A DNA stretch of 64,000 nucleotides from Thermodesulfobacteriota bacterium. Lineage in GTDB: Bacteria > Desulfobacterota > Desulfobacteria > Desulfobacterales > SURF-7. The notes under the pieces were generated by a model. It ran no database searches. It worked only from the letters and a program-made list of their open reading frames with translations, and was not told where the DNA came from. The stretch lies in assembly GCA_049320885.1 (NCBI GenBank), contig JBMORA010000001.1:50612-114611 (forward strand), written 5' to 3'. The position numbers were made by a program, and so were the translations under genes. Positions 658 to 18,757 of this stretch are shown in pieces. Numbering within the stretch: position 1 is the stretch's first letter; each line of letters begins with the position of its first letter.

Positions 658-798
658 GAGGGATGGTCACAGCTCCTTTTCCGTTCCGGCCGCCGCTGCC
701 GCGGCAACCGGGCTGGGCGAGACATCTGGATCTCCGTTCGGGCGGCATGCGCCGCCAGAATACCGGAATTAATACGAATTTCCTAATAATGCCATGGA

Positions 799-827
799 AG
801 TATATGCAATGGGTATCCGGGTGTCAA
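799..827 (-). promoter_or_regulatory. sigma70 promoter for the sensor gene
   Basis: Minus strand TTGACA-N17-TATACT. Confidence 0.65.
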
Positions 828-828
828 G

Positions 829-858
829 ATGATTGCCCATGCCATGATTGCCCATGCC
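829..858. repeat. Perfect 15-bp tandem direct repeat ATGATTGCCCATGCC x2
   Basis: Copies at 829-843 and 844-858, directly upstream of the minus-strand -35 box. Confidence 0.9.
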
Positions 859-1069
859 CGTTATCATTGTCCGGCATATTCCACCGAGCCGGATCTGCCC
901 CTGCGGCCATCGGCCTCGGCGGCGGATCAACCCTTTTTCCGCCCACGGACGACGCGGATTTTCCCGGATGAGAAAAAATACCGCAAAAAAATGAAACTTT
1001 TTGCCACCTACCGGGTTTAACTGTCTAAACGGCAACCATGTTTAATTTACCCGAAAAGGAGACTGAAAA

Positions 1070-1630
1070 ATGAAAAGATCGATGATGATGGTATTGGCGA
1101 TAACCCTGCTGATGACCCTGGGCCTTGGCGGCAACTCGTTTGCCGGTAACGGCAATATGCGCTCCGATGGAACTGCCGCCGCTATCCAAAACGGTAACGC
1201 GGACAATCCCCGGGGTGTTCTCAAAGAACAATTCCGCCATTGCGCCCGATGGCATCACCGGCCGGTTCTGAACCGGTTGTTCCACTGCATGCAGGACCTG
1301 AATTTGTCCGACGAAACCCGACAGGCCGTCCGGGATTTGCTGGCGGCGTATAAAGAATCCGCTGCGGCCCGCAGGGAAGCATACAACCAGGCGCGGATCG
1401 CCTACTGGGAAGCGCTCACCGCCCCGGTGCTGGATGAAGCCGCCCTGGCTGCCGCTGAAGACGCCATGCTGGCTCTCATCAACGAGGGGATGAATGCCAA
1501 ATTCGATCTGGCCTATGCCATCCGGGGTCTGCTGACGGATGAACAGATCGCCCAACTGTCAACCTGTTTCGATTTTTCGGTTGATGACGATCAGGACGAT
1601 GAGCCTGCGGGCGATCTGGAAAACGACTGA
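1070..1630 (+). CDS. Spy/CpxP-like periplasmic chaperone or periplasmic heavy-metal sensor family protein
   Basis: Signal peptide; LNLSDETRQ and LLTDEQ (LTxxQ-like) motifs; helical; AAGGAG RBS. Confidence 0.7.
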   Translation: MKRSMMMVLAITLLMTLGLGGNSFAGNGNMRSDGTAAAIQNGNADNPRGVLKEQFRHCARWHHRPVLNRLFHCMQDLNLSDETRQAVRDLLAAYKESAAARREAYNQARIAYWEALTAPVLDEAALAAAEDAMLALINEGMNAKFDLAYAIRGLLTDEQIAQLSTCFDFSVDDDQDDEPAGDLEND

Positions 1631-1677
1631 GTCATCTCTTCCACATCTCCTCCAACCCCAACCAGAGGTAACCGAGT

Positions 1678-1702
1678 AAGGGAGGGCAGGTCCCTCCCTT
1701 TC
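1678..1702 (+). terminator. Intrinsic terminator after spy/cpxP-like gene
   Basis: AAGGGAGGG-CAGGT-CCCTCCCTT hairpin followed by a short T-rich tract. Confidence 0.6.
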
Positions 1703-1768
1703 ATATTTGCGGGAAATGCAGAAATCCCTCGAACTGTACGCCAGCTTATTTTGCTATAACTGGCTTTA

Positions 1769-1802
1769 AATACTTGACATAAAAAATTTCATCAAGTATT
1801 CA
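1769..1802 (+). promoter_or_regulatory. Candidate promoter with overlapping inverted repeat upstream of the IHF gene
   Basis: TTGACA(1774)-N17-TATTCA, overlapped by perfect IR AATACTTGA-N14-TCAAGTATT (1769-1800). Confidence 0.45.
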
Positions 1803-1910
1803 CAGTAATTATGATACGCCTTTGCATGACCATACCCCGTCAACCCCTGTTTTTTTTCTTCAATATCAACATATTGGCCATAAAATATTCCATAATAACA
1901 GGTAAAAACA

Positions 1911-2186
1911 ATGAACAAGCTTGAATTGATCGAAAAATTTCGCTCCGAGGCGAAAATTTCAAAAGCGGAAGCAGCTACAATTGTAGACCTCTTCTTCAAT
2001 TCCATGTCGGATGCCCTGGCAAAGAGCGGCCGCGTGGAAATCCGCGGGCTGTTCAGCTTTTACGTGAAACAATACAAATCCTACATCGGCCGCAACCCGA
2101 AGACCGGTGAAAAGGTACCCATCAAACCCAAGAAGCTGCCATTTTTCAAATGCGGCAAGGAACTGAAAGCGCGAGTGGATTACTGA
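1911..2186 (+). CDS. ihfB: Integration host factor beta / HU family DNA-binding protein
   Basis: MNKLELI...GRVEIRG..SF...GRNPKTGEKV..KPKKLPFFKCGKELK signature. Confidence 0.85.
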   Translation: MNKLELIEKFRSEAKISKAEAATIVDLFFNSMSDALAKSGRVEIRGLFSFYVKQYKSYIGRNPKTGEKVPIKPKKLPFFKCGKELKARVDY

Positions 2187-2261
2187 TACCGGAAAAATCG
2201 TTTTCGGTGACGATCACGCCAGTCGATGCTGGCAATCAACCCTGAATGAAAGGAGCATCCC

Positions 2262-2486
2262 ATGGCCAATCAGATTGAAAAAGGAATCAAATCGATCAGA
2301 AAAGAGATTGACAAGGTGTTGGACCGGCTGGAAAAATTTATGGTAGAGATTTCCAAAATGGGACAATCAAAACCGGAAAAGAAATCGGCCTCCAAAAAAG
2401 CCCCTGCAAAAAAAGCAGCTGCAAGTAAAAAGAAAGCGGCGCCGGCAAAAAAGAAAACCGAGAAAAGCGACACGCTGAAGGATTGA
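2262..2486 (+). CDS. Small Lys/Ala-rich histone-like protein, possibly C-terminally truncated
   Basis: AAAGGAG RBS; N-terminal coiled-coil-like segment followed by KKAPAKKAAASKKKAAPAKKK. Confidence 0.65.
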   Translation: MANQIEKGIKSIRKEIDKVLDRLEKFMVEISKMGQSKPEKKSASKKAPAKKAAASKKKAAPAKKKTEKSDTLKD

Positions 2487-2552
2487 TCGCGGGTAAGCTG
2501 GGGAGCAACCGCTCAAGGGATAGCCGGATTTGGGGGGCTTGAAAAAGCCCTG

Positions 2553-2590
2553 GAGGGAAGCGAATGCACAATTCGTTTCCCTCTTTTTTT
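2553..2590 (+). terminator. Intrinsic terminator
   Basis: GAGGGAAGCGAAT-GCACA-ATTCGTTTCCCTC followed by T7. Confidence 0.75.
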
Positions 2591-2661
2591 CAAGGCAGAC
2601 CTGGCAGCGGTGGCGTAAGCATGGAAATATGTAAATTTTTTAAGTCATATTAAAGGATTGC

Positions 2662-2690
2662 TTGACACACTGGCAACCGATACATATACT
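2662..2690 (+). promoter_or_regulatory. sigma70 promoter of the biosynthetic operon
   Basis: TTGACA-N17-TATACT, about 50 nt upstream of ATG 2743. Confidence 0.75.
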
Positions 2691-2742
2691 CGGCAGCGAC
2701 TTGGCACTCCCGACCCTAATTTCTGACTGAATACAATTTTGC

Positions 2743-4143
2743 ATGAATATCTTATTGATTTTTCCAGCGCCGGAACGATTCCCCATCAGTGTATACCAGT
2801 ACCGCAACGTATCCATCCCCGCTTTTCTGACCCACATGGCAGCGCTCACTCCCAAGGAACACCAGGTTCGCCTGGTCGATATGATGATGGGCGACACCGT
2901 TCCCTACCACGACCGTTTTGACCTGGTTGGCATTACCGTCCGCACGCCCATGGCGCCGGTCTCCTATGCAATTGCCGACCGTTTCCGATCCATGGGAACG
3001 AAGGTCGTTCTGGGCGGGGCCCATGCCTCGGCGCTGCCCATGGAGGCCAAAGGCCACGCCGACGCGGTTGTCATCGGCGAAGCGGAACAAACCTGGGAAA
3101 TGGTTCTGGAAGATGTCCATACCAACAGCTTGCGCGACTTTTATGTCTGCGGGCCCTTTCCATTGGACACGCTCAGCGGCGATTTCCGCCACGTGCCCCA
3201 TCGGCCGGACCTGAAAGATCTGCCGGCACCACGATATGATCGGCTGGATTGCAGTCGCTATATCATGGGAACCTTCTTCACCACCCGCGGATGTACCTAT
3301 GGATGCAAATTCTGCAACGTGCAGCCGTTGTTCGGCGCCCGGACAAGGCACCGCCCCGTCGACCAGGTCATTGGCGAACTGTCAAAGGCCCCCAGACTCC
3401 TGCTGTCGGTGGACGACAATATTTTCGGCGCCCCGGGGGATGTCGATTACTATATGGAACTTTACGGCCGAATGAAAAAGCTCGGGAAATACTGGGCGGG
3501 CCAGGGTTCCCTGGCGGTAACGACCTATCCCCGTGCGGATGGGTTGCTGCAAACAGCAGCGAAAAGCGGTTTATCCCTGCTAACCGCCGGCATCGAGGCG
3601 CTGGACAGCGACGGTCTTGAAGAAAGCGGCGCCTTTCGGAAGCTCGGTCTTTCCGCGCCCGCTAACATCACCACGGACCAGGCCAGGGAAAGCATCCATA
3701 AAATTCAACGTTACGGCATCAACCTGCTGGGCTATTTTATCATCGGTTTCCGTCGACAGACCCCGGCGACCTTCCAGGCGATTCTTGATTTCTGCGACCG
3801 TTTCGCCATCATACCGGTACCGATTCTCCTGCACCCATTGCCCGGCACGCCCCTGTATGAGGAGTACCGGGCGGAAGGCCTGCTGCACGCTCCGCATGGC
3901 TGGGAAGCCTTCGACGGCGCGCATATGGTGGTCCGCCACCCGGAATTCGATGTCGCGGATACCGAACAAAAATATATCCAGACAGTGATGGCCGCCAACA
4001 GCAACGGCCGAAGAGTCTCCCGGACATTCCAGCGCTTTATCCGGAATCCCCGGATCGACAGCTTGATCAATTTTCACAAAACCCAGGGGGTCATGCAGAA
4101 GGGGATCCGGGAATATTTAAAGGAGCGGCGATCGTCTCCATGA
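2743..4143 (+). CDS. Cobalamin-binding radical SAM protein (class B methyltransferase-like)
   Basis: N-terminal B12-binding domain (DLVGIT..VVLGGAHAS..DAVVIGEAE), RGCTYGCKFC (CxxxCxxC), DDNIF, FIIGF, PLPGTPLY. Confidence 0.9.
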   Translation: MNILLIFPAPERFPISVYQYRNVSIPAFLTHMAALTPKEHQVRLVDMMMGDTVPYHDRFDLVGITVRTPMAPVSYAIADRFRSMGTKVVLGGAHASALPMEAKGHADAVVIGEAEQTWEMVLEDVHTNSLRDFYVCGPFPLDTLSGDFRHVPHRPDLKDLPAPRYDRLDCSRYIMGTFFTTRGCTYGCKFCNVQPLFGARTRHRPVDQVIGELSKAPRLLLSVDDNIFGAPGDVDYYMELYGRMKKLGKYWAGQGSLAVTTYPRADGLLQTAAKSGLSLLTAGIEALDSDGLEESGAFRKLGLSAPANITTDQARESIHKIQRYGINLLGYFIIGFRRQTPATFQAILDFCDRFAIIPVPILLHPLPGTPLYEEYRAEGLLHAPHGWEAFDGAHMVVRHPEFDVADTEQKYIQTVMAANSNGRRVSRTFQRFIRNPRIDSLINFHKTQGVMQKGIREYLKERRSSP

Positions 4144-5678
4144 AACCAGCCATATTATTGACCGGTGCCACCGGACTCGTGGGCGCCAGCCTGTTGCGTG
4201 CCCTGATAGAAGAAGATTATCCGGTCATCTGCCTGGCCCGCCCCAGGAACGGCCATTCCCCGGCAATGCGGATACAACATACCCTGGCGGCGCTGTCCCC
4301 TGATCTGACGTCTCCCCGGAAGATCAAAACCCACGTCGAGACCTATTGCGGGGACATCACCCAGCCGCAACTGGGCCTGTCCCTGACGGACTACCGCCAT
4401 CTTGCCCGGACCGTCACCCATGTCTTTCACAGCGCCGCCGCCATCCGTTTTGCGGCGGCCGACACTCACAAGGTTCGCCTGACCAACATCGGCGGCACGG
4501 ACAATCTCCTGGCCTTCTTGCAGGACGCCCCTGCCGTTGAAGGCCTGCATTATATCGGCACAGCCTATATCGCTGGCGACCGGGAAGATCGGGTTTACGA
4601 AGACGATACGGATAAAGGCCAGACATTCAACAACGCCTACGAGGAAAGCAAATTCGTCGCTGAACTCCGCATCCGGGAATTTCAGCGCCGGGCGCTTTCG
4701 AAAGTGACCATCTACCGGCCGGGCATCATTGTGGGGGATTACCTTACCGGCACCACCATCCGGTTCAATACCATGTATCAGTTTCTCAAGGTCCTGCACG
4801 TCCTGAAATCCTCCTACCGCCCCGACAGCAGCGGGAGAACCCACATGCCCATCCGGGTTCTCGCCGATCCCCGGACCACCAAAAACTTTGTCCCCATTGA
4901 TTATGTGGTGAAACTGGTCATGAAAATCTTTTCCGAACCGCGGCTCCATGGCAAAACCTATCATCTGGTCAACCACCAGCCGCCCACCATGGCCCTGATC
5001 CGGGAAGTCATGCTGGACGTGCTGCAGATCAGCGGCCCCACCTTCGTCCCCCCCAAATCCTTCCAGGAAAATCCGCCGGATGAAATCGAACGGGTTTTCA
5101 TCGATGAAACCAAGATCTACACGCCCTACCTGTTGAAGGAACCCGCATTCGACAACACCCATGTCCGCGACATCGCCCCGGGATCCGAATATCTGTGCCC
5201 GCCCATGGACCGGGAGGCCCTGCTCCGGCTTTTCGAATTTGCCGTCCACTCCGGCTGGGGTCGCAACATTTGGAAGCGGGTGCTCAAACCCGCCGAGAAT
5301 GCGCAGGGAAGGACCCAACTGATTCGCAGCTATTTCAACGACTTTTTGCCATCTGTCATGGGCCGGTCGATTTTTGCCGACCTCGACAACCTGAATGCCT
5401 GCATCGGTTTCCTGTTCACCGACAGCCGGGAAAAGTGGACGATTGAAATCAAAAACGGCAAGTTGCAACAAATACGACCACTCCTGCCGGATCGCAGCCA
5501 GGTGAACTATGAACTGGGGGATGACACCTTCGCCCACATCATATCCGGAACGCTGACCCCCCAGGAGGCTTTTTTCACCAATAAATCGAAAATCAAGGGA
5601 GATGCACTGAAAGGTTTGAAGCTTGCAGCCATTTTCGACCGGTTCATCAAGCAATACCCGTATCAAGGCCATGATTGA
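4140..5678 (+). CDS. Extended-SDR acyl-thioester / fatty acyl-CoA reductase-like protein (NAD_binding_4 type) fused to a C-terminal SCP2 lipid-binding domain
   Basis: LLTGATGLVG, GDITQPQLGL, HSAA, NIGGT, YEESK, YRPGIIVG. The last ~105 aa (WTIEIKNG...FAHIISGTLTPQEAFFTNKSKIKGD) fit the SCP2 pattern. ATGA overlap with the upstream gene. Confidence 0.8.
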   Translation: MKPAILLTGATGLVGASLLRALIEEDYPVICLARPRNGHSPAMRIQHTLAALSPDLTSPRKIKTHVETYCGDITQPQLGLSLTDYRHLARTVTHVFHSAAAIRFAAADTHKVRLTNIGGTDNLLAFLQDAPAVEGLHYIGTAYIAGDREDRVYEDDTDKGQTFNNAYEESKFVAELRIREFQRRALSKVTIYRPGIIVGDYLTGTTIRFNTMYQFLKVLHVLKSSYRPDSSGRTHMPIRVLADPRTTKNFVPIDYVVKLVMKIFSEPRLHGKTYHLVNHQPPTMALIREVMLDVLQISGPTFVPPKSFQENPPDEIERVFIDETKIYTPYLLKEPAFDNTHVRDIAPGSEYLCPPMDREALLRLFEFAVHSGWGRNIWKRVLKPAENAQGRTQLIRSYFNDFLPSVMGRSIFADLDNLNACIGFLFTDSREKWTIEIKNGKLQQIRPLLPDRSQVNYELGDDTFAHIISGTLTPQEAFFTNKSKIKGDALKGLKLAAIFDRFIKQYPYQGHD

Positions 5679-6360
5679 AGAATCTGTTTTTTTCCGCTCG
5701 GATCGCTTGAACCTTCACGGCGTTCTGTCATACGCAGAAGATCTCTTCCTCGCGCCGGCGGTCCTGTTGTGCCCGCCCCACCCTCAGCTGGGCGGCAACA
5801 TGGACAACAACGTCATCCGCGCGATCCACAATCTCCTGGCGGCGAACGATTTTGTCAGCTTTCGATTTGACTACCGCGGTGTCGGCAGGAGCGAAGGTGA
5901 TGCTGAAATGGAAGTGGACAGCCTCAAGGCCTTTTGGGAAGATTCCCACAGTCCCTTGGACCTGCCCCGCCAGCAGGATGCCATGGCCGCCTTCGATTAT
6001 TTGCGGCGGATGCCGGGAATCAACCAGCGGGAACTATCCCTCGTGGGGTATTCCTTCGGAGCCCATGCGGCCCTGCAGATCGCCGCCGACGCGCCGTGGC
6101 TCGCGGCCATGGTCCTGGTCGCCCCAACACTTCATTTCCACGATTTCGACCGGCTTGATTCCCTGACCATTCCCAAACTGATCGTCTGGAGCGACAATGA
6201 CTTCTCGTGCCCCCAGGATCATTACACCAAACGTTTCCGGGACTTCGCCGCCCCCAAGGAACACTTGGTTTTCCCGGGGGCGGACCATTTTTTCATCGGC
6301 CATGAAGCGGCCCTGAGCCACCGCGTTCTCCAATTTTTGAAAGGCAGGTTGAATGCATAA
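5671..6360 (+). CDS. Alpha/beta hydrolase (COG2945-like)
   Basis: PPHPQLGGNMDNNV, RFDYRGVGRSEG, nucleophile elbow GYSFG, GADHFF. Start at ATG 5671 overlaps the upstream stop by 8 nt. Confidence 0.85.
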   Translation: MIEESVFFRSDRLNLHGVLSYAEDLFLAPAVLLCPPHPQLGGNMDNNVIRAIHNLLAANDFVSFRFDYRGVGRSEGDAEMEVDSLKAFWEDSHSPLDLPRQQDAMAAFDYLRRMPGINQRELSLVGYSFGAHAALQIAADAPWLAAMVLVAPTLHFHDFDRLDSLTIPKLIVWSDNDFSCPQDHYTKRFRDFAAPKEHLVFPGADHFFIGHEAALSHRVLQFLKGRLNA

Positions 6361-7435
6361 CGTCCCCTGGTTTCATCAATCCGCCGATATCTGGTTGCGT
6401 CACGTGCTGTCGATCCATTTTGATCCGCAAACCGGAACCCCTTACTGGCTGGAACAGGCCCGAAAAATGGGAGTCGATGTATTGCAGCAGATCCGGTCCA
6501 CCGACGACCTCGGCATCCTGGGCCCCATGAACCCAAAGGCCCTCGCCACCCGGCCGGTGGAGGATTTCATTCCCCGCCGCTATCACCTGGAGAAGGAGTC
6601 CTTCACGCTGGGAGATACCGCCGGCACCACCGGCACCCCCAAGGTGACGGCCTATCGCAATGACGAGTTCCATGCCGCCTTTGTGGAATACTTCGGTTTC
6701 GTCGCCGAGAAGCTGGGCTTTCCCAAGAGCTTGAACTGGTTGTGGATCGGTCCAGGAGGGCCCCATATCATTGGCAAAGCCGCACGGATGGTGGCCAGGA
6801 GGATGGGCAGCCTGGATCCGTTCGCCATCGATTTCGACGCCCGCTGGATCAAGAAACTGGTTCCCGGTTCCATGGGCTGGGAGCGCTATTTCCAGCACAT
6901 TGAAGACCAGGCCCTGCACATTCTCAGGACCCAAGACATCGGCGTCCTGTTTTCAACCCCGCCGGTTCTGAAAAGGCTGGCGGATAAAATGAACCCCGCG
7001 CTACGGCGCCGAATCAAGGGGGTCCACTACGGCGGCATGGCGCTTTCCCCGGAGCTGTATCTGCGCCTGCGGAACGACTGTTTTCCCGAAGCCGTTCACA
7101 TTTCCGGATACGGCAACACCCTTTTCGGGGTTTGTCTGGAGGTCGAGTCCAACCCGGACGGGCGCCTTCATTACTTTCCCCCCGGTGTGCGCCTGCTCAT
7201 CGACATCATCGGCCCGGACAACCGGAAAGTGGATTATGGCCAACGAGGCCGGGTGGTTTTCAGTCGTCTGGATGAAAGTTTTTTAATTCTCAACATGCTG
7301 GAACGCGACCAGGCCACCCGTATTCCGGCCGGGGCGGCCGCCCGCGCCTTCGGCCTGACCCTGGACGGCTTGGCTGATCCCGGTCCGGACCCAACGCCGG
7401 ACACAGCGAAAAAGATGGCCCTGGGGCTGTATTAA
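6353..7435 (+). CDS. EhpF/LuxE/PaaK-like short adenylate-forming (ANL superfamily) enzyme
   Basis: HFDPQTGTPYWL, P-loop TAGTTGTPK, GPHIIG, IDFDARWIKK, STPPVL, GYGNT, DYGQRGRV, ERD and terminal GLY. These match my recollection of the phenazine-modifying enzyme EhpF in order and length (~360 aa). Confidence 0.75.
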   Translation: MHNVPWFHQSADIWLRHVLSIHFDPQTGTPYWLEQARKMGVDVLQQIRSTDDLGILGPMNPKALATRPVEDFIPRRYHLEKESFTLGDTAGTTGTPKVTAYRNDEFHAAFVEYFGFVAEKLGFPKSLNWLWIGPGGPHIIGKAARMVARRMGSLDPFAIDFDARWIKKLVPGSMGWERYFQHIEDQALHILRTQDIGVLFSTPPVLKRLADKMNPALRRRIKGVHYGGMALSPELYLRLRNDCFPEAVHISGYGNTLFGVCLEVESNPDGRLHYFPPGVRLLIDIIGPDNRKVDYGQRGRVVFSRLDESFLILNMLERDQATRIPAGAAARAFGLTLDGLADPGPDPTPDTAKKMALGLY

Positions 7436-7454
7436 CCGTAGGGAGGAATGCCTC

Positions 7455-9458
7455 ATGAAAGCGTCCATTTCTTCACCGAAATCCATGGAACTCCTGGCGC
7501 CGGTCGGCCGGTTTAAGGGGCTTGAACCGATCCTGGAAAGCGGTGCCGACGCGGTTTACCTGGCGGGCAAGGATTACAACATGCGCCGCCACCGTTCGGA
7601 TTTCAATTTCGATAGAGACCAGATCGCCCAGACGGCCGTGAAAGTTCATGACGCCGGCGCCAAACTGTATGTGGCGGTGAACAGCCTCTTGAGCGACCAA
7701 GAACTGGAAGGTGTCGGCGACTACCTCCGGTTTCTGCAGTCCGTGGGCGCCGACGCCATCATCGTGCAGGACCTGGGCCTCATCCGGCTGGTGAAGGAAA
7801 GGGAAATCCATCTACCCCTTCACGCCAGCACCATGATGAATATCCACAGCGCCGAGGGCGCCATCGCCGCCGCCGGACTTGGTATTGGCCGCATCATCTG
7901 CTCCCGGGACATTACCCTGGCTCAAGTCGAGGAGATGGGCCGGAAGAGCGGTCTGGAGATGGAATATTTCGTCCATGGCGATATGTGCTTTGTCCAAAGC
8001 GGCCAGTGCTATGCCAGCGGCCTGATTTTCGGAAACAGCAGCAATCGGGGCAAATGCATGAAACCCTGCCGATGGCCCTATGAATTGATCGATCTGGCCG
8101 ATGGTTCACGTCTGCCGGCCAGAATGGAAGGCAACTATCTTCTGGCCGTCAAGGACATGTGCCTGCTGCAGCGCATCCCCGAATTGGTGCAGGCCGGAAT
8201 CGTTTCTCTCAAAATCGAGGGGCGCATGCGGCCACCGGAATTCATGTCCCAAATCGTCAACATCTACAGAAGGGCCATCGACAGGTACCACACCGACCCC
8301 TTGGGCTATTCGGACAATTTTGACTTGTTCGAGGAACTCTATCGGGAACGGGTAAGGGAGTTTTCAACCAGCGTCGCCTTCCGTAGACCCGGTGCCGAAT
8401 TCATCGGTTCCACCGGAGAACGGGAACCCCTCTTCCTGAGCACCGGGGCTGTATTACCCGAGATCGACCTGCTGGACGATCCGGAAGGATTCCCCACGGC
8501 CCCAAGGGCACTCCAGAGCCCCCGGCCGGAACTGGCCGTGCATGTGGCCACGCCGCAAGCGGCCGCCCGGGCGCTGGCCGGCGGCGCTGACTGGATCTAT
8601 GTCGGTGGCGAAGTCCCCAGCCGGCATGATCATGGGTGGAACCAAGCCGCATTGGAATGCATTATCCGGGATACCCGGGCAAGCGGCAAAAAGGTCGGCC
8701 TGCTGACCCCCCGGGTCACCGTCGCCCATCAACTGCAGGGACTCGCCCGGTTGCTGGACGGCCGTCTGGCGGAACCACCGGACGCCGTGCTGGTCCACAA
8801 TCTGGGCAGTCTGCAACTGCTCAAGGCAACCACCGACATCCCCATCCACGCTGATTTTTCCTTGAATGTCATCAATGTCAAGGCTCTGGAGCTGCTGCAC
8901 AGCCTCGGGGCTGCCCGGGCGACCGTTTCCCTCGAAGCCGCCTTTGATACCGTGGCCGCCCTCGCCGCCGCCCCCCCCATGCCCCTTGAATGCCTGGTCC
9001 ATGGCCCCTTGCCCGGCATGTACGCGGAACATTGCCTGATCAGCCTGGCCCTGCGCGGAACCTCGGCCGACGAGCCTTGCCGCGGCACCTGCCGCCATCT
9101 TCGCTGTGGCCTGAAAAACCGGTACGCCGATATCTTCCCCGTGGAAACGGACCAGTATTGCCGCAGCCATATTCTCCTGTCGAAAGATCTGGCCTGCCTG
9201 CGGGTTATCGGCGCATTCTTTCACCCGGGTATAAAAAGCCTCCGCATCGAAGGGCAGTACTATGACCCGTCGCTGGTGGGGTATCTGACGGAGCTGTATG
9301 CCAGGACCATCCAGACCCCCGACGAACCCATCGGGGAAAAGGCCCTGCAACGCCTTGTGTCGCAAAGTCCCAGGGGATTCAGCCTCGGTGCCTATCCCAA
9401 AGGGATCTTTGCCGAAAGAGCGGAAGACTACAAAACCGTCAAAAAGGATATGAAATGA
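7455..9458 (+). CDS. Tandem two-domain peptidase-U32-family Fe-S protein (UbiU-UbiV/RlhA-like O2-independent hydroxylase)
   Basis: ELLAPVG..GADAVY, HASTMMN, exact CX6CX15CX3C motif, SLKIEGR. Second U32 barrel with GADWIYVG, HADFSLN, CX14CX3C and SLRIEG. GGAGG RBS. Confidence 0.85.
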   Translation: MKASISSPKSMELLAPVGRFKGLEPILESGADAVYLAGKDYNMRRHRSDFNFDRDQIAQTAVKVHDAGAKLYVAVNSLLSDQELEGVGDYLRFLQSVGADAIIVQDLGLIRLVKEREIHLPLHASTMMNIHSAEGAIAAAGLGIGRIICSRDITLAQVEEMGRKSGLEMEYFVHGDMCFVQSGQCYASGLIFGNSSNRGKCMKPCRWPYELIDLADGSRLPARMEGNYLLAVKDMCLLQRIPELVQAGIVSLKIEGRMRPPEFMSQIVNIYRRAIDRYHTDPLGYSDNFDLFEELYRERVREFSTSVAFRRPGAEFIGSTGEREPLFLSTGAVLPEIDLLDDPEGFPTAPRALQSPRPELAVHVATPQAAARALAGGADWIYVGGEVPSRHDHGWNQAALECIIRDTRASGKKVGLLTPRVTVAHQLQGLARLLDGRLAEPPDAVLVHNLGSLQLLKATTDIPIHADFSLNVINVKALELLHSLGAARATVSLEAAFDTVAALAAAPPMPLECLVHGPLPGMYAEHCLISLALRGTSADEPCRGTCRHLRCGLKNRYADIFPVETDQYCRSHILLSKDLACLRVIGAFFHPGIKSLRIEGQYYDPSLVGYLTELYARTIQTPDEPIGEKALQRLVSQSPRGFSLGAYPKGIFAERAEDYKTVKKDMK

Positions 9459-10741
9459 AACCCATTGGTCCGGAGGCCATACGCCAGAAAAAAAAAAGCT
9501 ATCTGCTCCCCTGTCTGTTTCATTTTTATCAGCATCCACCCCAGATCGTGAAGGGCGAAAGGCAGTATCTGATCGATCATGAAGGGAGACCATATCTCGA
9601 TTTTTATGCCGGCGTCGCGGTGGTCAACGCCGGCCATTGCCACCCGGAGATCACGGAAAAAACCTGCGCCCAGATCAGGACCCTCCAGCACACCACCACC
9701 ATTTATCTCACCCAGCCGATAGTGGATATGGCGGAAAAAGTGGCAGCGATCGCCCCGGCGGGACTGGATAAATGTTTTTTCTGCAACAGCGGTTCAGAGG
9801 CCAATGACGGTGCCCTGATACTGGCCCGTCTGGCGACAGGGCGTCACGGCACCATCAGCCTGACCCATGGTCTCCACGGAAGAACCTATCTGACCCTGAG
9901 CGTCACGGGGATCCCCATGTGGCGGACCGACAATGCCCCTTACAAGGAGGCCATGCTCATCCCCGGCCCCAACTGCTATCGCTGTCATTTTCAAATGCGC
10001 TATCCGACCTGTGACGTTCATTGTGCCCGCAACCTTGAAAAAGCGATCACGCCGGATACGGCGGCCTTCATCGCGGAACCTGTCGCCGGCAACGGCGGCA
10101 TCATCGTTCCGCCGCCCGAATATTTCCCCATCATTCGGGAGATCACCCGTAAAGCAGGCATCCTCTTTATTTGTGATGAAGTTCAAACCGGCATCAATCG
10201 CACCGGGAAGATGTTCGCCATCGAACACTGGGGAGTGACCCCGGATATCCTGACCATGGCCAAAGCCCTTGGCAACGGGGTCCCCGTAGGCGCTTACGTC
10301 ACAACGGCAGCCATCGCGGCCGCCCATGTCAAACCCGGCGCGTCGACCCTGGGAGGAAATCCGGTGACAGCGGCGACTGTGATGGCCACCCTGGAGGTCC
10401 ATGAAAAAGAAAGACTCCAAACGCGGGCCCACTCCCTCGGCCTCTATTTCAAGGAGCAATTGAAGGCCTTGCAGGAGAAGTATCCGATCATCGGGGATGT
10501 CCGCGGCATCGGTCTGATGCTCGGCGCCGAACTGGTGAAAACAGACGGAAGCGCCGACGCGGAAACCTGCGATCGGATCCTGGAATCGATGAAGGATGAC
10601 GGCGTCCTGATCGGCAAGACCGGTATCGGCAGAAACGTGCTGACGTTCCAGCCGCCGTTGATCGTGACAAAAGACAATATCGACGAGGTGCTGGGCAAAC
10701 TGGACAGCGCGCTCATGCGCAACCACCCGCATGCTTCCTGA
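9455..10741 (+). CDS. Class III PLP-dependent aminotransferase
   Basis: [40 protein letters not shown] (PLP Lys), [13 protein letters not shown] overlap with the U32 gene. Confidence 0.92.
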
Positions 10742-10825
10742 CAAGCAGAAGATTCGTCGCCCGCCCGTTTTGGGTTTTCCTGGCGGGCGGCCTGCTTTCG
10801 GCGGCCTGCGATGATCTGACAGCAG

Positions 10826-13039
10826 ATGAGGTTTATCGTGGCGGAAATCTTTCTCCTTTGGATCCTGCGGAATTCTGGCAAAGTCTGGATTGTCCTGATG
10901 GCGCTTGCCGTGGTGTTCGGCTACAACGCATCCAAAGTGCGCATGGACAACTCCATGGAAGTATGGATCCCCCTTAAAAGCCCGATCAAAACCCAATATG
11001 AACGTTTCCTCCAGGAGTTCGGTTCCGAGGAATACATGCTGGTCGCCTTTCAACTCCCTGGGGGACTGAGCCGGGACCATCTTGTGATGACCGGCCGATT
11101 GAGCCGCGCGCTGAAAAAGGAATCCGGAATCCGCAGCGTCTGGTCCCTGACGGAAATTTTCGATCGACCAAGCGAATACATCGATCTTTTCAAGATAATG
11201 ATCCTGTCGTCGGGTTTTGCAAAGCATCTGCTCATCGCGCCGGATGGCAAGGCCGCCGGCATCATTGTCCTGCTTTCCGAAGGAGGCCTTCGCGACAGAG
11301 GCGGTGTGCTGAAGCGAATCAAGGAAACCGTGGCGGCAACACTGCCCCATGGCCCCGAGGCCTTTATCGCCGGCCCATCCGTCATCAACGCCGAACTGGA
11401 CCATATCTCCCAGCGGAATGCGATGATCTATTACCCGATCCTGTTTGCCGCCTGTCTGTTTATGCTGCTGATGATTTTCAAGTCCTTGACCGGCGTCGTT
11501 GTGCCTGCGCTGATGGCGGGCTTCGCTCTCATGCTGACGGTGGGCTGGATGGGAATTCTGGAAGCCGAACTGAATGTCATCACCATCGCTGTGCTGCCAC
11601 TGGTCATGGTCACATCGCTGGCCTATTCCATTTATTTTTACAACGATTATGAAGGGCATGGGGAGCACCGTCCTCCTGCCGCCGTTGGAAGCCATGAGTC
11701 CGCTGTGATGAAGGCCTATAACAATATCCACCTGCCCTTGTTCCTCAGCGCCCTGACAACCGTGATCGGCTTTTTATCCCTCATGGCCAGCGATATCGGG
11801 CCTGTCAGCGACCTGGGGCTTTTCGTCGCCCTGGGGATCGGGTCGACCTTTCTCTTGGCCATTTCATTTCTGCCCCTGCTCCTGATGCGATTTCCCCGGC
11901 CGCATCCAAAACCGCGGCCGTCGGAGCCCCTTCATGGGCCGGCCGGTTTTTTCCCACGCACAGGACGTTTCGTCCTCCAATCCAAAAGATGGGTCATCGC
12001 TATCTTCAGCCTCGGCATGATCCTGGCCGGCATCGGCATGAGCAACCTCAGCATCGAAACCGACGCCTTGATGTTCTTCCCGGATGACTCGCCCATCGTG
12101 GCCGCCTATCATTTCATCGAGAGCCGTTTCACCGCCTTGGCGCCGGTGGAAGTCGTCATCACGGCCCAGGATGCGCCATGGGAAAACCACCTGCCGGATT
12201 ACGACACCCGAATGAAAATAAAAAGCTTCCAGGAAGACATTCTGCAAAATCCGGAAATCGTCACCTCCAAATCCATCGTGGACATTTGGGAAGATACCAT
12301 CAGTGCCGAACTCATGGAAACCAGCGCCATCCCGAATCAGCGCCTGCTGCAGAGTCTCGAGACGGCAAGCCGCTATTTCATCAACGACCGTGGAACAACT
12401 ACCCGCATTTCCGTCCGCGTCAAGAGCCTGGCTTCCAACCAGTTCCAAACCATCGTCACCTATATCGAAGCAAAAGCCCGGGAGCATTTCAACGGCTGGC
12501 GGGATGTTTATATAACCGGAATCGTTCCTATTATCGTCGACATGCAGAACCAGCTGCTGCAGAGCCTGATGAAAAGTTTCCTGATCGCGTTCGGCATCAT
12601 ATTCGGGGTCTTCCTCCTCCTGTTGAAATCGATGAAAAAGGCAGCCATCTGCATGTTCGTGAATCTGCTCCCGATCGTCGTCATTTTCGGATTTATGGGC
12701 TGGATGGACATCAAGCTGAGTGTGGCCACCGTGATGATCGGGAGCATCGCCATCGGGATCTGCGTGGATGACACTGTCCATTTCATCACGCGCCTGAAAC
12801 AGGAAAGCTACGGTACCGCCGACCTGCATGGGCCGCTCCTGATAACCCTCGCCGCCACCGGCAAATCGATCGCATCTACATCGCTGGCCAATCTATCCGG
12901 ATTCATCGTGCTCTGCTTTTCCGGTTTTGTTCCCATGCAGCAGTTCGGTATGTTGACCGGCATCACCATTGTCATCGCCATGCTGGCGGATCTGCTGCTC
13001 CTGCCAGCCTTGCTGGCGTTTTTCCGGATCAGACTTTAA
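10826..13039 (+). CDS. MMPL/RND family exporter
   Basis: Two TM-periplasmic-5TM halves; FLSALTTVIGFLSL; AIGICVDDTVHF. Confidence 0.88.
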   Translation: MRFIVAEIFLLWILRNSGKVWIVLMALAVVFGYNASKVRMDNSMEVWIPLKSPIKTQYERFLQEFGSEEYMLVAFQLPGGLSRDHLVMTGRLSRALKKESGIRSVWSLTEIFDRPSEYIDLFKIMILSSGFAKHLLIAPDGKAAGIIVLLSEGGLRDRGGVLKRIKETVAATLPHGPEAFIAGPSVINAELDHISQRNAMIYYPILFAACLFMLLMIFKSLTGVVVPALMAGFALMLTVGWMGILEAELNVITIAVLPLVMVTSLAYSIYFYNDYEGHGEHRPPAAVGSHESAVMKAYNNIHLPLFLSALTTVIGFLSLMASDIGPVSDLGLFVALGIGSTFLLAISFLPLLLMRFPRPHPKPRPSEPLHGPAGFFPRTGRFVLQSKRWVIAIFSLGMILAGIGMSNLSIETDALMFFPDDSPIVAAYHFIESRFTALAPVEVVITAQDAPWENHLPDYDTRMKIKSFQEDILQNPEIVTSKSIVDIWEDTISAELMETSAIPNQRLLQSLETASRYFINDRGTTTRISVRVKSLASNQFQTIVTYIEAKAREHFNGWRDVYITGIVPIIVDMQNQLLQSLMKSFLIAFGIIFGVFLLLLKSMKKAAICMFVNLLPIVVIFGFMGWMDIKLSVATVMIGSIAIGICVDDTVHFITRLKQESYGTADLHGPLLITLAATGKSIASTSLANLSGFIVLCFSGFVPMQQFGMLTGITIVIAMLADLLLLPALLAFFRIRL

Positions 13040-14443
13040 CAGCACCCGCAGCTTTCTGGTGATTCCAAGCAGGTACGCATGCTTCCACACCGGACGGAAT
13101 CGAAGCCTCCGGGCCAATTGTTGCAGCAGTACATTAGCGGGCCAATACCAGTCTTCGGCGCTGCTCCAGGTCAGCTCGGGATAACAAAACCGGTCGACGT
13201 CCGTTACATGCTGGATGCCCATGGCCTTGGACAGATAGCAGACCGGCCGTAAAAGCCCTGCCTCATCGGACAGGAGGCCCTCTTTTCTGGCAACGGCCTC
13301 CAGTTCGGTCCCTGGATAAATTCGCATGCCCAGATTGAACAAAACCTGGTTGGGTTTTTTGATCGTTTTGAGGAAAGCGACGGTTTCCCGCATGGTTTCC
13401 TTGGTCTCGCCCGGTCCACCCAGCAGAATGCAGAATAAAAACGGAATCCCGTGTCGGGAATACAATTCGGCGGTATGGGCGATATCGCTTTTTGCAAACC
13501 GTTTTTTCAGATTCTTCAGCATGACCTCCGAGGCCGAATCGATGCCGACTTCCACCCCGATGCATCCGGACGCCTTCATCAACGCTACAAGGCCTGCATG
13601 GATACCGCGGGGGCTGGTCATGGCGGACCAGTGGATCCTCAGCTTGCGCCGGACGATTTCCGCGCATATGGCTCTTGCATGCTGCTCCGGAAATGAAAAA
13701 ACGCTGTCGACAAAATAGAAATGGGCAACCCCTTGGTCCCGATGCAGCCCCTCGATCTCATCCACGACAGCGGCGGGAGCGCGCAGACGGTAGCGCCGGC
13801 CTTCGACGAGCGGATAACAGCAGTAAATGCAATTGAAGGCGCAGCCGCGCTTTGTCTGAACAGCGGCGTAGCCGCCATGGCGGAGATACGCTTTCAGATC
13901 GATCAAATCCCAGGCCGGTCTCGCCAGCGCATCCATTTCACTGAATTGCTTTCTATTATTGGTGATGTAACGATTTTCCCGGGCATACACCAGCCCGGGA
14001 ACCATGGCAATATCTTCCCCGTTCCGGTGTTTCTGAAGAAACGAAAGAAAGCTTTCCTCCCCTTCACCGACGATTCCATACGAAAGTCCCAGATAGTGCA
14101 AAATCCCTTCCGGGCAACTGGAAAAACCGGCCCCGCCGATGATGATGTCTCGATTGGTTGCATTCTTGACAGTATCAACGACGGTCTTGACTTCTTCCAG
14201 ATAGCTCCTTGATCCGATACAAGTGGAATTATCCAGGTTTCTAAGCGATATTCCGATCAGATCAGGCTTGAAGTGCGTTACAGCCTCGCGAACCTCCTTT
14301 TCGCCATGGGCTGCAAAACACAAATCCAGCAATCTCACGGTGTATCCATTCTCCCGGAGTGTTCCCGCGATGTACGCCAGCCCGATGGGCGCCACAGGAA
14401 AAGGCAGCATTTCCCGGCTGGTTGAAATCAGCAAGATCTTCAA
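12893..14443 (-). CDS. Cobalamin-binding radical SAM protein resembling the lipid-biosynthesis-associated (ladderane-island type) family
   Basis: Probable TTG start at 14443 after GGGAGG. KILLIS...PFPVAPIGLAYIA, LIGISLRNLDN, QTKRGCAFNCIYCCYPLVEG, FYFVDSVF, LLGGPGET, RIYPGT. The last 147 nt overlap the MMPL gene. Confidence 0.85.
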   Translation of the reverse strand: MKILLISTSREMLPFPVAPIGLAYIAGTLRENGYTVRLLDLCFAAHGEKEVREAVTHFKPDLIGISLRNLDNSTCIGSRSYLEEVKTVVDTVKNATNRDIIIGGAGFSSCPEGILHYLGLSYGIVGEGEESFLSFLQKHRNGEDIAMVPGLVYARENRYITNNRKQFSEMDALARPAWDLIDLKAYLRHGGYAAVQTKRGCAFNCIYCCYPLVEGRRYRLRAPAAVVDEIEGLHRDQGVAHFYFVDSVFSFPEQHARAICAEIVRRKLRIHWSAMTSPRGIHAGLVALMKASGCIGVEVGIDSASEVMLKNLKKRFAKSDIAHTAELYSRHGIPFLFCILLGGPGETKETMRETVAFLKTIKKPNQVLFNLGMRIYPGTELEAVARKEGLLSDEAGLLRPVCYLSKAMGIQHVTDVDRFCYPELTWSSAEDWYWPANVLLQQLARRLRFRPVWKHAYLLGITRKLRVLLKSDPEKRQQGWQEQQIRQHGDDNGDAGQHTELLHGNKTGKAEHDESG

Positions 14444-14620
14444 GTCCCTTCCTCCCAGTTGCCGTTGAACCAAAGTCCACCCCCAAACCGATTATCAAAC
14501 TATCCGGCACCAAAGCAACCATAACTACTCCACCCTGGCCGAAGCGCGCATCTGCGTCCTGCTCCGGCTTGTTCATTTACTTTTCAGGCGTATGGTTGCA
14601 TGCTATGGAAAATTTTTTGC

Positions 14621-14649
14621 TTGATTTTTTTGTTTAGCTTGTATACTAT
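14621..14649 (+). promoter_or_regulatory. marR promoter with overlapping operator copy 1
   Basis: TTGATT-N17-TACTAT with ATG 7 nt after the -10; GTTTA-N5-TATAC at 14632-14646. Confidence 0.55.
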
Positions 14650-14655
14650 ACTCTC

Positions 14656-15120
14656 ATGAACGCCAAGACCCAAACCATTGCCCAATTGATGCTGCAGTTT
14701 TACCGGATCGTCAACAAGATCACGGAACTGGAAAAAACGCCCTATGATTTCGGTGTCGGCGAAAAACTTTATCCATCTGAAATTCATACGATACAGGCCA
14801 TCGGCAACAACAGCGGCATCAACGTTACCGAACTGGCCAAAAATCTCGGCATCACCAAAGGGGGCGCTTCCCAAATGATATCCAAACTCAAGAAACGTGG
14901 CTTCATCAACAAAGTCAGAAGCATGGAAAACGACAAGGAAGTGCTTCTGATCCTGACAGCCAAAGGCCAGACCGCCTACAACGGGCACGAACAATTTCAT
15001 GCCGACCTGTATATCGACTTTGTCGCCTACATGAATGATATCAGCCGGGAACAGATCGATATATTTAAAGATATTTTAGAAAAAATAGAGTTTTATGTGG
15101 ACCGGTATCGCATAGAATAA
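14656..15120 (+). CDS. MarR family transcriptional regulator
   Basis: LYPSEIHTIQAIG...NVTELAKNLGITKGGASQMISKLKKRGFI...DKEVLLILTAKG winged helix. Confidence 0.9.
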   Translation: MNAKTQTIAQLMLQFYRIVNKITELEKTPYDFGVGEKLYPSEIHTIQAIGNNSGINVTELAKNLGITKGGASQMISKLKKRGFINKVRSMENDKEVLLILTAKGQTAYNGHEQFHADLYIDFVAYMNDISREQIDIFKDILEKIEFYVDRYRIE

Positions 15121-15137
15121 TTTTTTTTGCCATTATT

Positions 15138-15152
15138 GTTTAGTTCATAAAC
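15138..15152. promoter_or_regulatory. Palindromic operator copy 2
   Basis: Perfect GTTTA-N5-TAAAC upstream of the gene at 15177. Confidence 0.55.
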
Positions 15153-15176
15153 CTTAATATGAATTGAGCCGACACC

Positions 15177-15866
15177 ATGAGGATCTGGTCACCCACCCAC
15201 GGCGAGCCGCCAAACGAAAAATACCGGGAACTGCTTCACCGATTCGGGGACAAACGGAAGAAAACGGTGATTTTTCTTTCCCACTGTATTCTGAACGAGA
15301 ACACCCGGTATCCCGGCGGTGCCTGCCGGGCAGGCTGCCTGGCGGAAATTGTTCATCAGTGCATCGACCACGGGCTGGGAATGGTTCAGCTGCCCTGCCC
15401 GGAGCAATCTGCCTGGGGCGGAGTCTCCAAACGGTTGCTGTTGATGGCATATGGTGCCGACGGAACGATTTTATTTACCCTTCGGCAGTTCGCTGTGCCC
15501 TTGATTCGGATTTATTCCCGATGGATGAACGGTCGAATCGCGACCCGAATCGTCCGCCATATCCAGGACTATCTCGATTCCGGCTTCAGCGTTCGGGGCA
15601 TCGTCGGCATTGACGGTTCGCCCACCTGCGGCGTCGACAAAATCCTGGATTTCAGGAAATCGTTTGAAGTGCTGGCCTCCATGGATATCACTGCCGTTAC
15701 GGCGACGGATGCAGGTAAGGTGGTGCGGGAATGCCTGGTGGATGGGGAAGGTTTTTTCATTCAGGCCCTGCGAACCAAACTGAACCGCAGAAGACTATTT
15801 ATCCCTTTCCTGGGCCACAATCTGATTGCGGAGCTGGCTGGGGAAAAGAGCAATGTGATCCTGTAA
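15177..15866 (+). CDS. DUF523/TudS-related putative Fe-S desulfidase
   Basis: FLSHCILNEN, QLPCPE and GIDGSPTCG cysteine motifs. Confidence 0.7.
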   Translation: MRIWSPTHGEPPNEKYRELLHRFGDKRKKTVIFLSHCILNENTRYPGGACRAGCLAEIVHQCIDHGLGMVQLPCPEQSAWGGVSKRLLLMAYGADGTILFTLRQFAVPLIRIYSRWMNGRIATRIVRHIQDYLDSGFSVRGIVGIDGSPTCGVDKILDFRKSFEVLASMDITAVTATDAGKVVRECLVDGEGFFIQALRTKLNRRRLFIPFLGHNLIAELAGEKSNVIL

Positions 15867-16106
15867 AATGAGGACAAGTACCATGCAGAACATATCTCGT
15901 GCAGAAATGGGCGCTATGCCCCAGGTCAAAGCAGCTGAACGGCCGGGGGTGTCGGAATGAAATGGTTTCCAATCCATCGCACTCCGCCGAAACCGGTTGA
16001 TTTCCGTTGCAAATCAGCCCCACAGCACCCCTATAACCATCCCCCGGCAAGCCCTGAGCTATCAGCGCCCTCATACGGAGTCGTCACTCGGGACAGCAAC
16101 GGCCAA

Positions 16107-16790
16107 TCCTGGCGCTTGGAATCCCTGCGATGGTACGACAAATGGCTGAAGGGGAAGAATACCGGAATCGAGCAGGATCCGCCGGTCAACATCTGGATCA
16201 TGGGCCGCAACCAGTGGCGGGCGGAAATTGAATGGCCCATCGGTCGTACAAAATATGTCGATCTCTACCTCCGGCCGCAGGGGATGCGCGGAGGCACCGG
16301 CAGGCTCTGCCAGGAGCGACCCGAAACAGCCGAAAGAAAAATGTCCTATCTGTCCTGGCCCTTTTCTCCCGGAATAATCGGCCGGTCGCAACTGGTCTAC
16401 CGCAGTGATATTCTTTGTTCGGAAGTGGAGGTCACCGGGCACATCGTGCTCACCCTATATGCCGCCTGCATCTGGCCGAACGCGAATCGTTTCCTTACTG
16501 GTCATCGGATTCGGTTGGAAATCGCCTGCACCGAGTCGATTTATCATGATTTCCCCTATGTCCACTTCTCCGCGCTTTCCTGCGGCAAGGTCAGCGTGAT
16601 CAGTTCACCGGAATATCCCTCAAAGCTGACCCTGCCGCTGGTGGATTCCAGCCTGGAATTCAACGGCGATGATGCCGGCATCCAATTCGAGAAGCATCCA
16701 TCCAATTATTTCGCCACCAACGGGAAAGCAAGACGATTCGGGTGCGAGAAGGAAACATCCGTGGAGATGCTTGAAAGGAGTGTGCTATGA
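16107..16790 (+). pseudogene. C-terminal fragment of a CocE/NonD family hydrolase with an internal deletion
   Basis: LRWYDKWLKG...PPV.IWIMG.NQWR.E.EWP...LYL, EVTGHI.LTLYAA, GHRIRLEI, YPSKLTLP. No catalytic N-terminal domain, and the segment normally between LYAA and IWPxAN is absent. Confidence 0.7.
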
Positions 16791-18668: not shown

Positions 18669-18680
18669 CATAGAAATCAT

Positions 18681-18757
<77 letters not shown>

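Follow-up and report, generated by a model that had tools for sequence, protein, structure and literature searches.

The subject of this analysis is a gene cluster near the left end of a 64,000-nucleotide stretch of DNA from a Thermodesulfobacteriota bacterium (assembly GCA_049320885.1, contig JBMORA010000001.1, positions 50,612 to 114,611; the whole stretch is called the window, and positions are counted from its first letter). The cluster encodes a B12-binding radical S-adenosylmethionine protein (rSAM1), a thioester-reductase-type enzyme with an SCP2 domain, an alpha/beta hydrolase, an EhpF-like adenylating enzyme (the ligase), a tandem U32 protein, a class III pyridoxal-phosphate (PLP) enzyme and an MMPL transporter, with a second radical protein gene (rSAM2) converging on it (Table 1). 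It is a real, conserved and apparently undescribed lipid-biosynthesis cluster, widespread in anaerobic ammonium-oxidising (anammox) bacteria and sporadic elsewhere. The reading preferred here, to which a probability of roughly 40% is given from sequence comparison, is that the operon directs the assembly and export of a lipid conjugate: a futalosine-derived, hydroxylated aromatic acid would be amide-linked to a fatty amine, and the product would serve as a non-isoprenoid, quinone-type redox carrier in the membrane. A preliminary description, made from the letters of the window, had proposed a stand-alone line from acid to amine with radical methylation and anaerobic hydroxylation; the emphasis now shifts away from radical methylation and towards a conjugate of an aryl acid and a lipid, for which a redox role is likely.

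Conservation and distribution of the cluster

Relatives of the ligase, which is the marker gene of the cluster, were sought in 185,579 species genomes; 181 were confirmed, and the best 80 of these 181 were taken further. Most of these 80, largely anaerobes, were Brocadiales; the others came from Phycisphaerae and further Planctomycetota, from Hydrogenedentota and Lentisphaerae, and from a few deltaproteobacteria. Conservation was counted in the 47 genome loci in which the ligase gene is flanked on each side by 5 kb or more: the reductase was present in 41, SCP2 in 44, the hydrolase in 32, U32 in 34, the aminotransferase-family gene in 41 and MMPL in 35. At least four of these six partners were found in 40 of the 47 loci and all six in 14, so that the co-occurrence proposed as a check in the preliminary description, and with it the claim of a conserved and apparently undescribed biosynthesis-and-export cluster, was borne out. 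In full-text literature no description of the gene set was found, while genome-paper supplements and subscription journals may list the anammox genes.

Within the class of Brocadia pituitae the ligase was present in 59 of 132 genomes, as a single locus that usually has cytochrome b and multiheme c genes next to it. An HzsA-like gene was found in 60 genomes of this class (67 matches less 7 multi-copy or longer unrelated proteins), and by hand count 38 of these 60 carried the ligase as well; G472 and G492, assembled in megabase contigs, gave no ligase match. The cluster is thus common in anammox genomes, and the idea that it is universal there was dropped. Cluster-type ligases were rare in two other planctomycete classes (9/301 and 3/301 genomes, with a clear score gap).

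A second EhpF-like subfamily, 30–34% identical to the window ligase, was met in Planctomycetota (L209–L229, L247–L273). In the class with 3 cluster-type ligases, 218 of 301 genomes matched and the subfamily appears near-core; it also occurs in another planctomycete class. In 33 of 48 short loci its gene has an aldehyde-dehydrogenase-like neighbour, and a pyrroloquinoline-quinone-like beta-propeller or a sodium:solute symporter gene is often present as well. In one genome (G487:C1:1790510-1791606) the ligase gene is split across two frames, perhaps as a pseudogene or through a sequencing error.

Evidence for the parts of the proposed product and weighing of alternatives

The only sequence relatives of the ligase in the PDB were EhpF structures (E 3.5e-31), one of which is titled as substrate-bound. 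A model of the enzyme (mean predicted local distance difference test, pLDDT, 89.7) had EhpF as its nearest fold (template-modelling score, TM, 0.78; 25% identity), followed by PaaK-type aryl-acid enzymes including NatL2, AjiA1 and ClxA (TM ~0.63–0.67; 15–17% identity), and an aromatic head group is favoured because of these neighbours. The P-loop and adenylation motifs are conserved (T89-G91-T92-G94, G252-Y-G-N255, D307); Cys261 occurs in 53 of 75 sequences and no Cys is invariant. No aldehyde-dehydrogenase-like partner gene was found in the window or among the conserved neighbours, and the enzyme is more likely an aryl-acid ligase than an activator feeding the reductase. In a midpoint-rooted FastTree phylogeny the cluster ligases and their SCP2 fusions formed one long-branch clade (0.915), in which the window ligase grouped with L002 and L003 (0.98). 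One protein (P0135) is a hydrolase–ligase fusion; a predicted complex of the two window proteins scored 0.23 against a mark of 0.32, without controls.

For the reductase, PDB matches were reductase (R) domains (MxaA R domain, E 3.6e-25), and the catalytic triad T141/Y167/K171 is conserved. In the genome G402, which holds locus L003 (ligase homologue 60% identical), an orthologue of the reductase (43% identity; in one clade with the window enzyme at support 1.0, FastTree) lies outside the cluster in a run FabF-FabF-FabG-ACP-like-FabF-reductase-FabZ, where the open reading frame (ORF) called acyl carrier protein (ACP)-like is a motif reading without a family match at 1e-20. The SCP2 domain is fused to the reductase in the window and to the ligase in P0168, P0173 and P0180, or stands alone. 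An acyl tail is favoured because of this FabF/FabG/FabZ context and the SCP2 fusions. The R-domain matches, the FabF-type operon and the fusions also lend support to the thioester reduction and lipid-like product suggested in the preliminary description.

Genes of the futalosine (Mqn) route and redox proteins accompany the cluster elsewhere. Of 168 loci examined, 36 had an Mqn-family match; in five (L072, L073, L139, L140, L165) the reductase gene is directly preceded by MqnA and an MqnE-MqnC fusion, and in L162 by MqnA alone. The fused MqnE-MqnC proteins (L072:4122-6314, L073:2353-4572, L139, L140, L165) have ~730 residues and two radical-SAM/CofH domains. A UbiD-like gene was seen in 3 of the 168 loci and an MqnP-type prenyltransferase in none. 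In the assemblies G441 and G442, which may be incomplete, the cluster-adjacent Mqn genes were the sole PF02621 and CofH_C matches, and no MqnD, UbiD or MqnP orthologue was found. When the 89 loci that extend 5 kb or more downstream were compared, 61 had U32 only, 18 a paralogue of MqnD only, one (L237) both and 9 neither. The paralogue, whose best structures were AF1704 and MqnD TTHA1568, has a changed N-terminal motif, but in the conserved HE motif its His is retained; among 50 of the 80 loci, the genomes that carry it usually have another MqnD-family gene besides (36–41% identity). That U32 replaces MqnD in menaquinone synthesis was considered and rejected: genomes with U32 mostly have an MqnD-family gene elsewhere, and L237 has both. 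The futalosine genes of the host itself lie on contigs C30, C13 and C66 and include a futalosine locus, L086.

Cytochrome b/multiheme c genes neighbour the cluster in 45 of the 76 loci of at least 15 kb, and YceI-like genes were found at L003, L070 and L075. Together with U32-type hydroxylation these neighbours favour a redox role, and the futalosine genes and cytochromes of homologous clusters indicate an aromatic, quinone-type head group, which the preliminary description had left out of account. In 24 of the 76 loci a haem-free predicted lipoprotein takes the place of the cytochrome, and the two never occur together (0/76). This family (L074:13146-14243 and homologues; model pLDDT 88.8) has an invariant CGC motif, and its core domain gave no Pfam match, no PDB sequence match and no fold match at E <= 0.001; a weak similarity to the NLP fold (E ~0.05, TM 0.2–0.38) is a lead only.

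The tandem U32 protein carries two sets of four cysteines, C178/185/201/205 in 45 of 45 sequences and 527/542/546/569 in 44 of 45, and the four-Cys motif CX6CX15CX3C described in PMC6747719 is present. It scored 171.4 bits against a cut-off of 440 with the UbiU model and 77.3 against 275 with the UbiV model, and no solved U32 relative was found in the PDB. U32 proteins have been implicated in O2-independent ring hydroxylation (PMC10990095, PMC6747719), and from PMC10990095 a prephenate-dependent reaction may be expected of the family. A full-length orthologue (42%) occurs in Sporomusa ovata, an anaerobe reported to contain ubiquinone (PMC9430772), which fits a role on a quinone ring; a scan of viral contigs with the Sporomusa protein gave no match. 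Two-domain U32 proteins without DUF3656 were seen as 42–43% orthologues in Bacillota (Sporomusa ovata, Syntrophomonadaceae, Thermacetogeniaceae; P0397, P0381, P0391, P0398, P0409), and are candidates for fused UbiU/V-like enzymes of anaerobes.

In the PLP enzyme K270 and D241 are invariant. No aminotransferase orthologue was found in five of five tested genomes whose clusters are without one (best matches 31–39%, orthologues 43–64%), and no reductase in two of five genomes whose clusters are without a reductase. Of the amination role proposed in the preliminary description, the class III family and the intact PLP Lys/Asp pair stood, while the gene proved optional and its active site atypical; the enzyme may be other than a standard transaminase. 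Some homologous clusters without MMPL have, in their ORF lists, an ABC-transporter-like gene pair.

According to the preferred reading, the reductase-SCP2 protein would reduce acyl-ACP or acyl-coenzyme A (acyl-CoA) to a fatty aldehyde, which the PLP enzyme would aminate to a fatty amine; a reductase and class III transaminase leading from acyl-ACP to fatty amine are described for TamH (PMC9594044). Clusters without the PLP enzyme might form an alcohol instead, and hence an ester rather than an amide. The head group would be 1,4-dihydroxy-6-naphthoate or a close relative drawn from the futalosine genes of the host, hydroxylated on the ring without O2 by the tandem U32 protein; in other clusters the MqnD paralogue could supply the ring, and duplicated mqn genes feeding an acyl unit have a precedent in PM100117 (PMC4763440). 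The ligase would adenylate the aryl acid and couple it directly, with no carrier protein, to the amine; ClxA is described as making aryl amides and aryl esters in this way, from the acid and ATP (PMC12519233). The hydrolase would be a putative partner in acyl transfer or editing, and the lipid would be held by SCP2. The two radical proteins would add lineage-specific methyl groups, and MMPL would export the product. A bolder form of this proposal, held to be rather unlikely, is that the majority of anammox bacteria, along with other planctomycetes and a few deltaproteobacteria, produce a second, isoprenoid-free respiratory quinone, namely a hydroxylated naphthoquinone-carboxamide of a fatty amine (possibly ladderane-related in anammox) formed by carrier-free EhpF-like ligation and served by its own cytochrome b/multiheme c chain, the window holding a horizontally acquired, doubly methylating version.

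A number of observations weigh against the amide-linked redox lipid. The window cluster is without an Mqn gene and without a cytochrome, lipoprotein or YceI neighbour, and the head group and redox role are therefore carried over from homologues. The locus counts are not independent, because most cytochrome-flanked loci come from related Brocadiales and some metagenome loci duplicate genome loci; the lipoprotein stands where a cytochrome would be expected in the 24 long loci; the argument from G441 and G442 leans on assemblies of uncertain completeness; and the fatty-acid-synthase context of the reductase was seen in one genome. The alternation of U32 with the MqnD paralogue is not strict, given L237 and the 9 of 89 loci with neither, and we know of no chemistry that makes the two equivalent. 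As for amine formation, position 213 of the PLP enzyme is N in 51 of 51 sequences and position 397 is T, A or V and never Arg; we take these to be the sites of the glutamate-binding Glu/Arg pair in GabT-type gamma-aminobutyrate transaminases. Its nearest solved relative is ethanolamine-phosphate phospho-lyase, its gene also stands beside the different EhpF-like subfamily in L216, L228 and L231, and in G427 and G443 it is present while no reductase was found. Finally, a naphthoquinone-fatty-amine amide was not found reported in the literature, and according to PMC12954380 the quinone that predominates in Kuenenia stuttgartiensis is menaquinone-7 (MK-7).

Several of the same findings would also suit a modified menaquinone that escapes decarboxylation, which is considered unlikely. 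The ligase would then activate the carboxyl group of a (possibly prenylated) dihydroxynaphthoate, the reductase and the PLP enzyme would turn it into an aldehyde or alcohol and an aminomethyl group, and U32 and the radical proteins would decorate the ring. The Mqn and cytochrome associations apply equally to such a route; the pathway to which EhpF belongs leads from a phenazine carboxylate to a hydroxymethyl compound (PMC3175449), the sister EhpF-like subfamily keeps company with an aldehyde-dehydrogenase-like gene in the loci counted above, and the pairing of SCP2 with two U32 domains resembles UbiT-UbiU-UbiV (PMC6747719). The reductase would need a thioester, however, for which there is neither a carrier protein nor an invariant ligase Cys, its orthologue in G402 sits in a fatty-acid-synthase operon, and no MqnP-type prenyltransferase was found in the 168 loci or in G441/G442. 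A low probability is likewise assigned to a LuxCDE/TamAH-like route, that of the preliminary description, in which a fatty acid released by the hydrolase is activated again by the EhpF-like enzyme, the reductase and aminotransferase give a fatty amine or alcohol, and U32 and the radical proteins modify the chain of a non-aromatic membrane amphiphile. The SCP2–ligase fusions, the reductase in the FabF operon, the TamA/TamH precedent (PMC9594044) and the score of rSAM2 above the cut-off of the lipid-biosynthesis family TIGR04072 all accord with it. It leaves the MqnA, MqnE-C and MqnD-paralogue genes (36/168 loci) and the cytochromes unexplained, the structural neighbours of the ligase act mostly on aryl acids, and each radical protein recurs in 1 of 47 loci; of the stand-alone acid-to-amine line, thioester reduction is supported, while its purely stand-alone character is not, given the Mqn genes and cytochromes of homologous clusters.

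Under a further explanation, judged improbable, the product is no free carrier. It would be either a secreted metabolite with redox activity or a lipid or cofactor intended for a co-encoded periplasmic protein, bound by it or attached to it; this partner would be the multiheme/cytochrome b module or else the haem-free lipoprotein. Cytochrome (45/76) and lipoprotein (24/76) neighbours that never occur together would be expected of alternative clients, and the lipoprotein has its invariant CGC motif. Neither partner lies beside the window cluster, however, none was found in the host genome G000 with the queries tried (an unrelated cytochrome b only), and no transferase for attachment to protein is evident. 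Tailoring and export of a hopanoid side chain by an HpnO-like aminotransferase, an HpnN-like MMPL protein and HpnP/R-like methylases is very improbable: matches to the HpnJ, HpnR, HpnN and HpnA models were weak and all far under the cut-offs, no hopanoid gene stood among the annotated neighbours, and no squalene-hopene cyclase was found in the 98%-complete host genome (best 22 bits, cut-off 431), on which ground this candidate was rejected.

Respiratory lipoquinones are textbook isoprenoids. If the preferred reading holds, electron carriers would gain a new class in the amide-anchored naphthoquinone, and the futalosine route a new branch; open energetic questions in anammox electron transport are noted in PMC12954380. 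The cluster would give a small-molecule role to the unstudied two-domain U32 family and to the MqnD paralogue, and possibly a biomarker lipid. Under the rival explanations, too, the cluster is a testable, uncharacterised anammox lipid pathway, and the window offers a compact single-operon version suited to heterologous expression.

Gene layout, radical-SAM accessories and flanking DNA

The features of the region are collected in Table 1. The ORF check gave seven uninterrupted co-oriented frames on the + strand (2743–13039), with overlaps at four junctions (4140/4143, 5671/5678, 6353/6360, 9455/9458) and a spacer of 19 nt between the ligase ORF (end 7435) and the U32 ORF (start 7455), just as described beforehand. 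The sixth junction, which the preliminary description did not mention, is a gap of 84 nt (10742–10825) between the PLP-enzyme and MMPL genes, where a hairpin was no better than in shuffles (z −1.79). The predicted promoter reported there, TTGACA-17-TATACT, was located with 11 of 12 matches and is among the two best of 21 sites in 1–18000, against 11.5 +/- 3.6 sites in shuffled sequence. Pfam and NCBIfam gave B12-rSAM, NAD_binding_4 plus SCP2, alpha/beta hydrolase, weak AMP-binding, two U32, class III aminotransferase, MMPL and again B12-rSAM; a specific NCBIfam cut-off was passed by rSAM2 only, and the catalytic motifs of every core gene are intact. The earlier domain calls agree with Pfam, that of EhpF being backed by the PDB match and fold, and the absence of polyketide synthase (PKS), nonribosomal peptide synthetase (NRPS), ACP and cyclase domains held in the 15 window proteins scanned with Pfam. 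Among the sequencing runs listed as containing the region, none was of RNA.

Table 1 Features of the cluster region (window coordinates)
Feature	Position	Strand	Remarks
IHF/HU gene	1911-2186		
Short Lys/Ala-rich ORF	~2262-2487		follows IHF/HU gene
Sigma70-type promoter-like site TTGACA-17-TATACT	2662..2690	+	3' of terminator-like hairpin at 2552-2584
rSAM1, B12-binding radical SAM protein	2743..4143	+	CxxxCxxC, residues 184-191; accessory
NAD_binding_4 thioester-reductase-type short-chain dehydrogenase/reductase (SDR) with C-terminal SCP2 domain	4140..5678	+	core
Alpha/beta hydrolase	5671..6360	+	triad Ser128-Asp177-His206 intact; core
EhpF-like short ANL adenylating enzyme (ligase)	6353..7435	+	marker gene of the cluster
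Tandem two-domain U32 protein	7455..9458	+	4+4 conserved Cys; two [4Fe-4S] clusters predicted
Class III PLP enzyme (aminotransferase family)	9455..10741	+	common but optional; atypical active site
MMPL/HAE3-type RND transporter	10826..13039	+	core
rSAM2, B12-binding radical SAM protein, TIGR04072 family	12893..14443	-	accessory; tail overlaps MMPL
MarR, TudS-like desulfidase, CocE/PepX C-terminal fragment, ICMT-like methyltransferase, unknown protein	14656-17844		
tRNA-Arg(TCT)	18681-18757	-	right edge of variable region

The two radical proteins had been described as members of the cluster proper, which was not supported: each was found in 1 of the 47 well-flanked loci, and both are accordingly regarded as accessory. 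rSAM1, a likely C-methylase, has four homologues at 65–68% identity, and a 66% orthologue lies within the cluster in L002 only. The convergent rSAM2 gene is present as described (TTG at 14443, stop at 12893) and shares 147 nt with the 3' end of MMPL. Its product can be aligned over 466 residues, at 55%, with a 471-residue homologue, which is co-oriented inside the same kind of cluster in L010, and then runs on for ~50 extra residues antisense to MMPL; this tail suggests that a stop may have been lost after a rearrangement. Its TIGR04072 score is marginal (365.4 bits, cut-off 360), and the next-best models, both under cut-off, are the aromatic C-methylases BzaD and TsrM. About ten loci of B12-radical-SAM paralogues were seen in the host genome (contigs C9, C12, C31, C38, C39, C44, C47 and C64). 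One of its clusters, L089 (G000:C39:63000-82000), is FabF-rich, carries a TIGR04072 protein (382 bits) and is reminiscent of deltaproteobacterial ladderane-like clusters; it could be a source of an unusual acyl chain.

The cluster of the window looks acquired, because the ligase was found in none of 400 sampled genomes of the host phylum (single-protein query) and in none of 17 genomes of the family, including two congeners 94–99% complete (profile search), because 40 relatives have the flanking housekeeping DNA while, among the matches listed, those to the core are scattered and short, and because one contig in run X1 (possibly the source sample) joins 2597 to 18679, with 29 letters on the short side, a weak hint of the empty site of a 16-kb island. 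No integrase was seen in this region, the largest repeats listed include no evident one of attachment type, and the GC content at third codon positions (GC3) of the cluster is unremarkable. The ligase tree names no donor; the placement of the window ligase beside anammox proteins is unsupported (0.48). The block at 14656–17844 is probably a separate mobile module, since the MarR and TudS-like genes recur together in G582 at 73% DNA identity without the cluster. The Lys/Ala-rich ORF shows strain-level variants in runs X1 and X2.

Comparison with known systems

With the Ehp (D-alanyl-griseoluteic acid) tailoring of phenazines the cluster shares a short ANL adenylating enzyme of the same fold. 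It differs in having no phenazine core genes and no aldehyde-dehydrogenase-like partner, a role presumably held by EhpG in the Ehp pathway, and the window enzyme belongs to its own long-branch clade, tied to SCP2, hydrolase and reductase. The name of thienamycin ThnN was met as a database label only. The tambjamine system TamA/TamH likewise joins a thioester reductase to a class III PLP enzyme, and prodigiosin PigE and myxochelin MxcG/MxcL are comparable reductase/aminotransferase routes. Unlike TamA/TamH, the cluster has separate genes and no ACP or pyrrole genes (no ACP or A-ACP didomain was found in the window, and an ACP-like ORF stood beside the reductase orthologue only in G402), and its PLP enzyme is optional and without the usual glutamate-binding residues.

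The combination of an SCP2 domain with two U32 domains of four Cys each recalls UbiT-UbiU-UbiV (PMC6747719), whereas here the U32 domains are fused, score far under the UbiU/UbiV cut-offs and differ in Cys spacing, and ubi genes and a prenyltransferase are lacking. As in the PM100117 branch of the futalosine pathway (PMC4763440), extra mqnA/C/E/D genes stand beside an adenylating enzyme in homologous clusters; PKS, prenylation and decarboxylation genes are missing, MqnD is a diverged paralogue, and the window cluster itself is without mqn. The PaaK-type carrier-free aryl ligases ClxA, NatL2 and AjiA1 share the fold of the ligase at low identity, yet the predicted partner here is a lipid, either an amine or an alcohol, in place of a second aryl unit, and the annotated neighbours include no benzoxazole genes. 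With the type II fatty-acid synthesis (FASII) clusters for anammox ladderanes, which include the kuste2803-type B12-rSAM, the cluster has in common that rSAM2 passes TIGR04072 and that it is itself common in anammox bacteria; identity with them was rejected on gene content, as the window cluster has no FabF, FabZ or ACP. The ladderane gene set of PMC2649909 is a different one, and 'aminotransferase' and 'U32' do not occur in that paper.

The cluster stands outside each of these systems because it has no aldehyde-dehydrogenase-like partner, ACP, prenyltransferase or FabF/FabZ and because its UbiU/V scores are too low. By analogy, it may best be compared to a hybrid, with a tail made as by TamH, a head made as by UbiTUV and the futalosine branch, and a joint of the ClxA/EhpF kind.

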